Shown here in pieces: positions 6,369-6,625 of a stretch of DNA of 64,000 nt. The stretch comes from a virus. Numbering within the stretch: the first letter of the stretch is position 1; every line of letters starts with the position of its first letter. The stretch lies in the UHGV virus genome UHGV-0090252, one strand, 5' to 3'. The notes under the pieces are model-generated. The model was not told where the DNA came from, ran no database searches, and was given only the letters and a program-made list of their open reading frames with translations. Both the position numbers and the translations under genes were made by a program.

Positions 6369-6445
6369 ATTAAATCTTTTTAGAGAACTTCTAAGAACCT
6401 AAGCAACAAGGTTCCACAACAAGCTGTAATAACCTTAGAAGCCCT

Positions 6446-6468
6446 CTAAAAAGACCTAAAAAGGTCTT
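6446..6468 (-). terminator. rho-independent terminator inside the tRNA array
   Basis: hairpin AGACCT-AAAA-AGGTCT with run of 5 A on the plus strand to its left, i.e. U-tract after the hairpin on the minus-strand transcript. Confidence 0.55.
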
Positions 6469-6625
6469 TGCATAGTCTTGTTTAATCCGGTGACTAGAAC
6501 CTTTGGAGAGCTTGATATTATCTCTTCTCCGTGACACCTACTAGGTGTTTTATCAGTGTGTACGACAATACACGAGGGATACCAAAGCAACATCCGAATG
6601 AAGCTTGGCTTTAAATCTTATTAGG

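Follow-up and report, generated by a model that had tools for sequence, protein, structure and literature searches.

A putative conserved RNA module between two tRNA genes in the tRNA array of a Felixounavirus genome

A structured non-tRNA interval in the tRNA array

The DNA analysed is a stretch of 64,000 nucleotides (nt) from the virus genome UHGV-0090252 (hereafter, the window), given as one strand in the 5' to 3' direction. It contains 25 transfer RNA (tRNA) genes, all on the minus strand between positions 3778 and 8669, which were predicted with ARAGORN and agree with the Rfam results. The subject of this report is the tRNA-free interval at positions 6369-6623 of this array. We favour, with a probability of roughly 55%, the reading that this interval is a conserved, structured non-tRNA RNA module, which is encoded on the minus strand, co-transcribed with the tRNAs, and operates in the manner proposed below. 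The evidence for this reading comes from the conservation of the interval in related phages, the pattern of base changes in its predicted helices, and its folding energy.

The source of the window was assigned by sequence comparison: region 5700-8700 shares 98.5% identity with Escherichia phages finno and JohannRWettstein (Bas63) and is matched across at least 80% of its length by 240 records of Felix O1-like phages, which places the genome in the genus Felixounavirus. The interval is bounded by tRNA-Ser(tga) (6624-6713), directly upstream in the direction of transcription, and by tRNA-Leu(tag) (6291-6368), directly downstream, both on the minus strand and both identified by ARAGORN and Rfam. 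The initial annotation of this DNA had correctly described two tRNA-free gaps in the array, but their sizes had to be revised. The first is 255 nt in length, not 257 nt, and the second, according to ARAGORN and Rfam, spans 6714-6951. The smaller second gap given previously (6810-6951) implied a tRNA at around 6725-6812, because a tRNA-like sequence is called there at relaxed thresholds only. This sequence (6725-6812, minus strand) combines a perfect acceptor stem of 7 bp, a T-arm, and an encoded CCA with an aberrant D-arm and an anticodon loop of 8-9 nt (CCUCCAAAA); it was missed by ARAGORN at default settings and by Rfam at the gathering score. In some relatives, certain tRNAs of the array, which may include a counterpart of 6725-6812, are labelled as tRNA-OTHER or pseudo.

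No tRNA was detected in 6369-6623 by ARAGORN, either at default settings or with thresholds lowered to 80%, and no match to the tRNA clan was obtained with Rfam at E <= 10. No Rfam family was assigned to the interval at either the gathering score or E <= 10, the matches at E <= 10 being solely chance-level ones to microRNA precursors, which reflect the long hairpin described below.

Homologues of the interval are present in 254 phage records with 79-100% identity, all belonging to Felixounavirus, Mooglevirus, or Suspvirus. An exact 20-mer from its core was found in IMG/VR only in contigs of about 87-90 kb. The 33 distinct versions of the gap from the three genera were aligned as minus-strand RNA, and a consensus structure was computed with RNAalifold; for the comparison of invariance with the tRNAs, 10 loci from the other two genera, Mooglevirus and Suspvirus, were used. 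Over these 10 loci, positions 6466-6545 are 96% invariant, which equals the best-conserved tRNAs of the array (tRNA-Leu-taa, tRNA-Lys-ctt, tRNA-His, and tRNA-Gly). Of the two flanking tRNAs, tRNA-Ser reaches only 90% and tRNA-Leu 87% in its alignable part. All 33 sequences share an almost unchanged block of about 100 nt, which folds into the short hairpins P2-P5 described below and is followed by a terminator-like hairpin.

Organization of the module

The minus-strand fold of the whole gap has an energy of -71.9 kcal/mol (z = -3.5), which was equalled by none of 200 shuffled sequences, and the segment 6369-6470 folds with -37.6 kcal/mol (z = -5.3 vs shuffled controls). The three hairpins listed in the initial annotation all exist at the positions given there. 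The first consists of AGACCT (6452-6457) and AGGTCT (6462-6467) around AAAA and extends to an 8-bp stem, AAAGACCT/AGGTCTTT, at 6450-6469; on the minus strand, it reads AAAGACCU-UUUU-AGGUCUUU followed by U residues (UUUUU when counted from the 6-bp stem). The second is formed by ACACC (6534-6538) and GGTGT (6544-6548) around TACTA, with TTTAT next on the plus strand. The third, GAACC (6395-6399) with GGTTC (6410-6414), is the mere tip of an inverted repeat of about 90 nt, in which 6370-6395 pairs with 6434-6459 (26-nt arms, 85% complementary).

All of these hairpins are parts of a larger arrangement, which is described here from 5' to 3' on the minus strand. At its 5' end is the AU-rich 3' trailer of tRNA-Ser (6610-6623; UAAUAAGAUUUAAA), which is conserved in the 33 homologues (UAAUAAGAUUUAA), contains AAGAUUUAA, found again at the 3' end of the module, and is a candidate endonucleolytic processing site. 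The trailer is followed by P1 (6581-6609), a hypervariable hairpin with at least nine unrelated sequence versions, each of which folds as a hairpin (-7 to -16 kcal/mol), and these versions differ even between phages that are otherwise 97-99% identical. P2 (6558-6573), the hairpin GUGUAU/GUACAC of the RNAalifold consensus, has six pairs, which are 100% paired and include one A-U to G-U change.

The nearly invariant core, as defined by the invariant columns in the 33 distinct sequences, spans 6446-6548 and comprises P3, P4, P5, and the terminator-like hairpin (T). P3 (6534-6548; ACACCU-AGU-AGGUGU) is the second of the hairpins mentioned above, and it is closed by G-U in 29 sequences and by A-U in the other 4. 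P4 (6505-6530; GGAGA...UCUCC with an inner GAU/AUC helix) is invariant except for one G-C to G-U change, and P5 (6470-6500; GU..UAGUC/GACUA.GC) contains seven pairs that never vary and abuts T. T (6447-6469) is a hairpin of 7-8 bp, AAAGACC(U)/(A)GGUCUUU followed by U5, and resembles a weak intrinsic terminator.

The last part is an imperfect long hairpin of about 90 nt (LH; 6370-6459), which stops 1 nt short of the 5' end of tRNA-Leu. The 3' half and the U-tract of T are shared with its lower 5' arm. The base of LH is conserved, and its upper part differs among genera; the 16 conserved pairs grow in the window to a stem of about 29 bp, longer than the roughly two turns (20 bp or more) of mostly continuous double-stranded RNA that are typical of RNase III sites. 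The helix that closes the module as a whole consists of just six weak AGAUUU/AGAUUU pairs, including G-U.

The sequence AAGATTTAA occurs eight times in the window, where 1.9 occurrences are expected, and all eight are on the minus strand (5130, 6370, 6611, 22273, 43692, 45448, 47797, and 54530). It flanks tRNAs within the array; at 43692, it ends an open reading frame (ORF) with Lys-Ile-stop before a canonical terminator.

Base pairing on the minus strand

The alignment consensus contains 56 pairs, and 99.8% of the 1848 cells (pairs by sequences) pair in standard fashion, compared with 35-55% in a control in which the 3' partners were slid by 1-3 columns. Fourteen pairs vary on one side, and all variants still pair, mostly by exchanges between A-U and G-U or between C-G and U-G. 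G-U accounts for 96 of the 528 cells of LH, and each of these would be an A-C mismatch if the plus strand were the RNA. Of the 16 consensus pairs in LH, 7 show changes on a single side, and 1 changes on both, from UA to GC in 11 sequences. The T stem stays paired in all 33 sequences, with one exchange of A-U for G-U and one of C-G for U-G, while its loop occurs in at least seven forms. U5 is likewise invariant in the 33 sequences, even though its possible partner in LH is changed from A to C in all 15 sequences of the Mooglevirus/Suspvirus type. Under neutrality, roughly half of the transitions should disrupt pairing on the minus strand; the 14 observed, which are not strictly independent events, all leave it intact. 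Changes that are wobble pairs on the minus strand only favour, at the level of sequence, a minus-strand RNA that is transcribed and folded.

The same pattern bears on the plus strand. The initial annotation had proposed convergent terminators, the plus-strand one of which would end an antisense or independent small RNA. In the window, ACACC-TACTA-GGTGT is indeed followed by TTTAT on that strand, and an extended -10-like sequence, TGATATTAT, lies at 6513-6521. This sequence, however, would yield an RNA of about 25 nt at most, the promoter scan found no plus-strand promoter in the gap, and the neighbouring genes are all on the minus strand. The T-run (GGTGTTTT) is present in only 4 of the 33 homologues, namely in the small subgroup to which the window belongs, the other 29 having GGTGCTTT or a weaker run, and the hairpin is weak when read as plus-strand RNA (-7.3 kcal/mol in the window and -4.9 kcal/mol in the relatives). 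The wobble substitutions become mismatches on the plus strand, whereas P3 itself is invariant and forms equally well on the minus strand. We conclude that there is no conserved plus-strand terminator and that the predicted one is the core hairpin P3 viewed from the wrong strand; a plus-strand small RNA is very improbable.

Even less credible is a small protein gene. A 48-amino-acid ORF (6391-6537, minus strand) is present in the window, and it is annotated in Bas63 and other records, in several GenBank entries as 'hypothetical protein'. It starts with GTG, has no properly spaced ribosome-binding site, and passes through the terminator hairpin and LH. The core lacks variation of the synonymous type. 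Frameshifts result from the loss of 1 nt in Bas63 and from loop indels of 1-2 nt in other genera; such small indels fall both within the core and in the loop of T. The ORFs annotated as 'hypothetical protein' over the interval are very probably not genes, and the database annotation is corrected in this respect.

Terminator-like hairpin and transcription units

T has a folding energy of -10.0 kcal/mol including its flanks (z = -3.6), which is at the weak end of the published terminators of Felix O1 (-9.2 to -21.8 kcal/mol). The nearest promoter upstream of the module is a sigma-70-type promoter, TTGACA-N17-TATAGT, at 7232-7260 on the minus strand, which matches the consensus at 11 of 12 positions, is conserved in relatives, and was predicted in Felix O1 as P45. 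It is followed by a structured leader of about 200 nt, tRNA-Arg, the tRNA-like sequence, tRNA-Ser, the core, and T, in that order. The promoter scan found nothing promoter-like between T and tRNA-Leu, so that the seven tRNAs at 5714-6368 need read-through of T. In the phages Michonne, mistaenkt, SP22, and EcSzw_1, an ORF for an HNH protein begins a few bases past LH, leaving no space for a promoter, and this gene would likewise need read-through. Because of the missing promoter between T and tRNA-Leu and this ORF directly behind LH, T is not expected to be an efficient stop, and any termination there would be partial. T is probably a leaky terminator, an attenuator, or a hairpin that stabilizes a 3' end, and not a clean operon boundary. 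The proposal of the initial annotation that T splits the array into separate transcription units, consistent with the promoter at 7232-7260, does not agree with these positions, since that promoter lies upstream of T and none lies between T and tRNA-Leu.

If T is an attenuator, the module could be a purely cis-acting leader, in which the core senses a ligand, a protein, or a tRNA and sets the share of transcription that passes T into the distal tRNAs and the HNH gene, with no trans-acting RNA involved. The invariant multi-hairpin domain directly abuts a hairpin with a U-tract, the genes downstream have no promoter of their own, and the window can adopt an alternative fold that splits T, its 5' half pairing upstream and its 3' half becoming part of LH. 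This anti-terminator pairing, however, needs the UUUU loop of the clade of the window, which is lost in Mooglevirus and Suspvirus (AGUU, AAU, and GUUU), and the RNAalifold consensus keeps T formed. In addition, no riboswitch or leader family in Rfam matched the interval, even at E <= 10. A purely cis-acting role is therefore regarded as unlikely, and an RNA module that is released from the transcript is preferred.

Homing endonucleases in the array of relatives

The neighbourhood of the interval has been altered by endonuclease genes in several relatives. In the four genomes named above, a 150-amino-acid HNH gene interrupts allele A of tRNA-Leu(tag) after nucleotide 11 (locus L002, positions 1957-2500, and loci L003, L008, and L012): the eleven bases after LH are identical to the first eleven of tRNA-Leu(tag) in the window (GGGAGATTGAC), and this remnant now serves as the ribosome-binding site of the HNH gene. 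An entirely different tRNA-Leu(tag) gene, allele B, lies behind the HNH gene. From these sequences, the HNH protein looks like a homing endonuclease that brings along a replacement tRNA. Genomes that have allele B without the HNH gene look like deletions between two ATTTAAT repeats.

Endonuclease genes are also found at various other sites between tRNAs, for example in CHB7 (L007, 2390-2731), wV8 (L014, 2858-3262), SP22 (L008), and SFPB (L013), and they are of the PD-(D/E)XK type, several HNH types, and one type annotated as 'endonuclease VII'. The PD-(D/E)XK gene of CHB7, inserted just ahead of the AU-rich trailer, takes its final two codons and its stop codon from the conserved AAG ATT TAA. 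This variety marks the array as a hot spot of free-standing homing endonucleases.

These observations raise an explanation at the DNA level, namely that the interval is a landing pad or leftover of homing endonucleases and owes its conservation to target sites or co-conversion. HNH genes lie between LH and tRNA-Leu in Michonne, mistaenkt, SP22, and EcSzw_1 and upstream of tRNA-Ser in wV8 and SFPB, and the PD-(D/E)XK gene of CHB7 is located right behind tRNA-Ser; tRNA-Leu(tag) exists as two unrelated alleles, with allele B in all four HNH-carrying genomes, and P1, which adjoins an insertion point, is hypervariable. Insertion at the borders of the module explains such hypervariable edges but not the invariant centre. 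LH, the part nearest to the HNH site, differs among genera, whereas the part 100-190 nt away is invariant, which is the opposite of what co-conversion predicts. Recognition sites of homing endonucleases span tens of bases and not about 100. Furthermore, the substitutions obey minus-strand RNA pairing rules, and no endonuclease remnant was detected in any gap of the window by tblastn with eight homing endonucleases from relatives. An origin of the conservation at the DNA level is thus quite improbable compared with selection on a minus-strand RNA.

Related elements in other gaps of the array

Every long gap of the array is conserved between genera at 76-94%, like the tRNAs. Between tRNA-Thr and tRNA-Val, the gap 5868-5962 (minus strand) contains an element of about 85 nt that hardly varies among 22 distinct homologues across three genera and that folds into a long hairpin with a 2-nt bulge near its base (GAGGUCAAGU...ACUU-CA-GACCUC). 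At 7510-7659 (minus strand), a 150-nt RNA (z = -6.3) ends 4 nt upstream of tRNA-Lys(ttt) and has a 24-bp closing stem, whose arms (7514-7535 and 7636-7657) are 95% complementary, around a multiloop of 100 nt. A degenerate tRNA fragment (7708-7742) lies farther upstream in the same gap.

The gap 7029-7275 (minus strand) contains the promoter 7260-7232 and the conserved structured leader of about 200 nt, in which compensatory changes are present (GUGAGG/CCCUCAU vs GCGGGG/CUCCCUGU). This leader ends in a hairpin that is paralogous to LH and has GGGCUU(U)CUAAG in common with it. In some Suspvirus and related phages, the terminal hairpin is swapped for another one. Besides LH, long hairpins lie 4 nt upstream of tRNA-Arg (7033-7067) and tRNA-Lys (7514-7657), and all end with AAAGAU..UAAU; AAAGAU..U(U)AA(U) stands before each tRNA that follows a long gap. 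The same leader, AAGAUUUAAU, is found in front of a tRNA in contig L045, a distant relative of 88 kb that is otherwise without similarity.

A further repeat was observed in the array: the motif TTGCTGTAAACGGTCTTCTG(TAAATTTG) occurs four times (7764-7797, 7860-7879, 8309-8342, and 8475-8508), and on the minus strand, CAGAAGACC(G/A)NNTACAGCAA lies just 3' of several tRNAs. Outside the array, Rfam reported a group I intron at 42180-42477 (minus strand; 55.1 bits, above the gathering score), which overlaps the 3' part of a 399-amino-acid ORF (42444-43643); introns were not reported in the original Felix O1 paper.

Ro60-like protein and possible Y RNAs

Directly upstream of the array, 2.2 kb upstream of the module and on the same strand, an ORF (8835-10250, minus strand) encodes a protein of 471 amino acids of the DUF2828/DUF7788 family. 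Its AlphaFold model has a predicted local distance difference test score (pLDDT) of 84.6 and a predicted template modelling score (pTM) of 0.85. The top 11 PDB structure matches were all Ro60/Rsr/TROVE proteins, including the Ro60 of a Thermus phage, aligned over the full length with E values of 4e-8 to 2e-5 and template modelling scores of up to 0.65. The structural comparison was needed to show this relation, because a profile search against PDB sequences retrieved Ro60 only at E of about 1. In the Bas63 preprint, the orthologue gp130 was reported to be Ro60-like and to counter the ppl defence, and the authors speculated that some of the 'tRNAs' of the array are Y RNAs.

The RNA from the gap, alone or with other gap RNAs, could accordingly be a Y-RNA-like partner bound by the phage Ro60-like protein. 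The adjacency of the two is real, and bacterial and phage Ro60 genes usually have neighbouring Y RNAs. In unrelated phage contigs, too, homologues of the Ro60-like protein often adjoin tRNA arrays of the same strand: such tRNAs were found within 3 kb in 20 of the 76 distant loci that encode one. Several gap RNAs, moreover, have a conserved helix at the base (UCUUU/AAAGA), above which they diverge. Among all gaps, 5868-5962 is the one with the most Y-RNA-like shape.

Some known features of Y RNAs are nevertheless missing. GNCGAA occurs nowhere on the minus strand of the array, and CGAA does not occur in the gap. The YrlA model (RF02553) gave no match in the gap; its only weak match (17 bits) overlaps tRNA-Phe/His. 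Y RNAs also have a long stem between their 5' and 3' ends around a large internal loop, and the helix joining the ends of the module, as delimited here, has only six weak pairs, including G-U. In eight of the distant homologue loci, Rfam found no YrlA and only two transfer-messenger RNAs, and a search of all 76 with nhmmer gave no significant match to the gap profile or to the other gap sequences. Moreover, no Bas63 RNA is needed for gp130 to counter ppl, since the protein does so when produced on its own from a plasmid or T7. A Y-RNA-like partnership therefore seems rather unlikely. It is likewise doubtful that the gap RNAs 6369-6623, 5868-5962, and 7510-7659 are unconventional Y RNAs without the CGAA motif or the tRNA-like module; if they were, the Y RNAs and the Ro60-like protein would form a phage ribonucleoprotein acting on host or phage RNA.

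The distant 88-kb contig also encodes, at L045:9399-13767, a Ro60-like protein 48% identical to that of the window, followed by 22 same-strand tRNAs. Its array has many tRNA-free gaps of 80-560 nt, several of them with strong hairpins that end a few bases before the next tRNA; no sequence similarity was detected between these gaps and those of the window.

Proposed working of the module

We propose that the module is transcribed from the promoters of the array, of which the nearest is that at 7260-7232. T would act as a weak intrinsic terminator or 3'-end-forming hairpin that halts only a fraction of the polymerases. Cutting of the AU-rich trailer by an RNase E-type enzyme, together with cleavage by RNase P at the 5' ends of the tRNAs, would assist the release of the RNA. 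By the combined action of T and the cutting of the tRNA precursor, a stable RNA of about 170 nt containing the invariant core could be formed. Polymerases that read through T would make LH, which may serve as a double-stranded processing or protective element and is a candidate RNase III site. As a consequence, the expression of tRNA-Leu and of the six tRNAs behind it would be lowered, as would that of the HNH gene in several relatives.

Several points weigh against an RNA module of this kind. The helices P3-P5 never vary, and covariation therefore neither backs nor contradicts them; the approximately 100 invariant nucleotides could also be caused by a constraint at the DNA level or by protein binding. 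T contains only three G-C pairs and five U residues, and was not listed by a consensus terminator scan; its homologue in Felix O1 is absent from the TransTerm list published for that phage. The initial annotation had called T a strong terminator; a real and selectively maintained hairpin with a U-tract is present, but its strength was overstated. When the full gap is folded at minimum energy, an extended LH and an upstream pairing take the place of T.

Searches for a counterpart of the module elsewhere also gave little. No match to the gap was found by blastn, which is insensitive to short complementarity, in 5,426 complete Escherichia coli genomes, and an exact-pattern scan for the P4 region gave no matches in 185,579 species genomes. 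Within the window, a k-mer search detected no convincing complementarity to the gap. By these comparisons, the module appears to have no detectable bacterial origin. Finally, it is only a prediction that the interval is transcribed, that T terminates, that LH is processed, and that a stable RNA accumulates, and no expression data were found in the literature on Felix O1 and Felixounavirus transcriptomes and small RNAs. The k-mer search yielded only a shared terminator-like motif at 43661-43706, which was rejected as a target because it is a normal intergenic terminator after a gene ending with AAG ATT TAA.

Phage tRNA arrays are usually annotated as tRNAs with junk or spurious small ORFs between them, whereas the 'junk' described here is conserved like the tRNAs in three phage genera and varies in keeping with RNA pairing. 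The array thus holds at least one uncharacterized, putative RNA gene or processing element, and probably several. The module is located near a Ro60-like anti-defence gene in phages of the Bas63 type, which are genetically tractable; owing to this tractability and to the Ro60-like neighbour, the decades-old question of the non-tRNA RNAs of phage tRNA clusters becomes directly testable.

Comparison with known systems

The T4 'species 1' and 'species 2' RNAs (RNA C and D) and the stable RNAs of T5 are about 100-150 nt in length and have no known function. The module resembles them as a small structured RNA that lies between or after tRNA genes, and it would, like them, be co-transcribed with the tRNAs and released by tRNA-processing enzymes. 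It has no sequence or Rfam relation to these RNAs, and it differs from them by the addition of a terminator-like hairpin and a long hairpin of 90 nt.

In Escherichia coli, 3'ETS-leuZ and ITS-metZW are spacer RNAs of tRNA operons, about 50 nt in length, with known sponge targets. The module, too, lies directly 3' of a tRNA; a cut in the AU-rich trailer would set one of its ends, and a terminator hairpin with a U-tail the other. Unlike these RNAs, which derive from operon ends and short spacers, it is internal to an array, would be about 170 nt long, and has a weak terminator that needs read-through.

RNase III processing hairpins lie between genes in the early transcripts of T7 and in rRNA operons. 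LH, by analogy, may be placed beside them as a stem of 26-29 bp with internal irregularities between two functional RNAs, but it has no sequence relation to the T7 or rRNA hairpins. The T4 protein SegB is a free-standing homing endonuclease of a phage tRNA region. A comparable situation, with endonuclease genes between tRNAs and replaced flanking alleles, is found next to the module in relatives, whereas the interval in the window itself contains neither an endonuclease gene nor a remnant of one.

Like Y RNAs (YrlA, Yrl1/2; PMC4201824, PMC12135203), the module is encoded near a Ro60-like gene, on the same strand and among tRNAs, and has a basal helix and variable upper parts. Unlike them, it has no CGAA, no match to YrlA, no tRNA-like module with T- and D-arms, and, as delimited here, no strong closing stem, and the Ro60-like protein encoded here is of the divergent DUF2828/DUF7788 family. 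The description that fits the interval best is that of a new, lineage-specific member of an old class, the non-tRNA structured RNAs of phage tRNA clusters.

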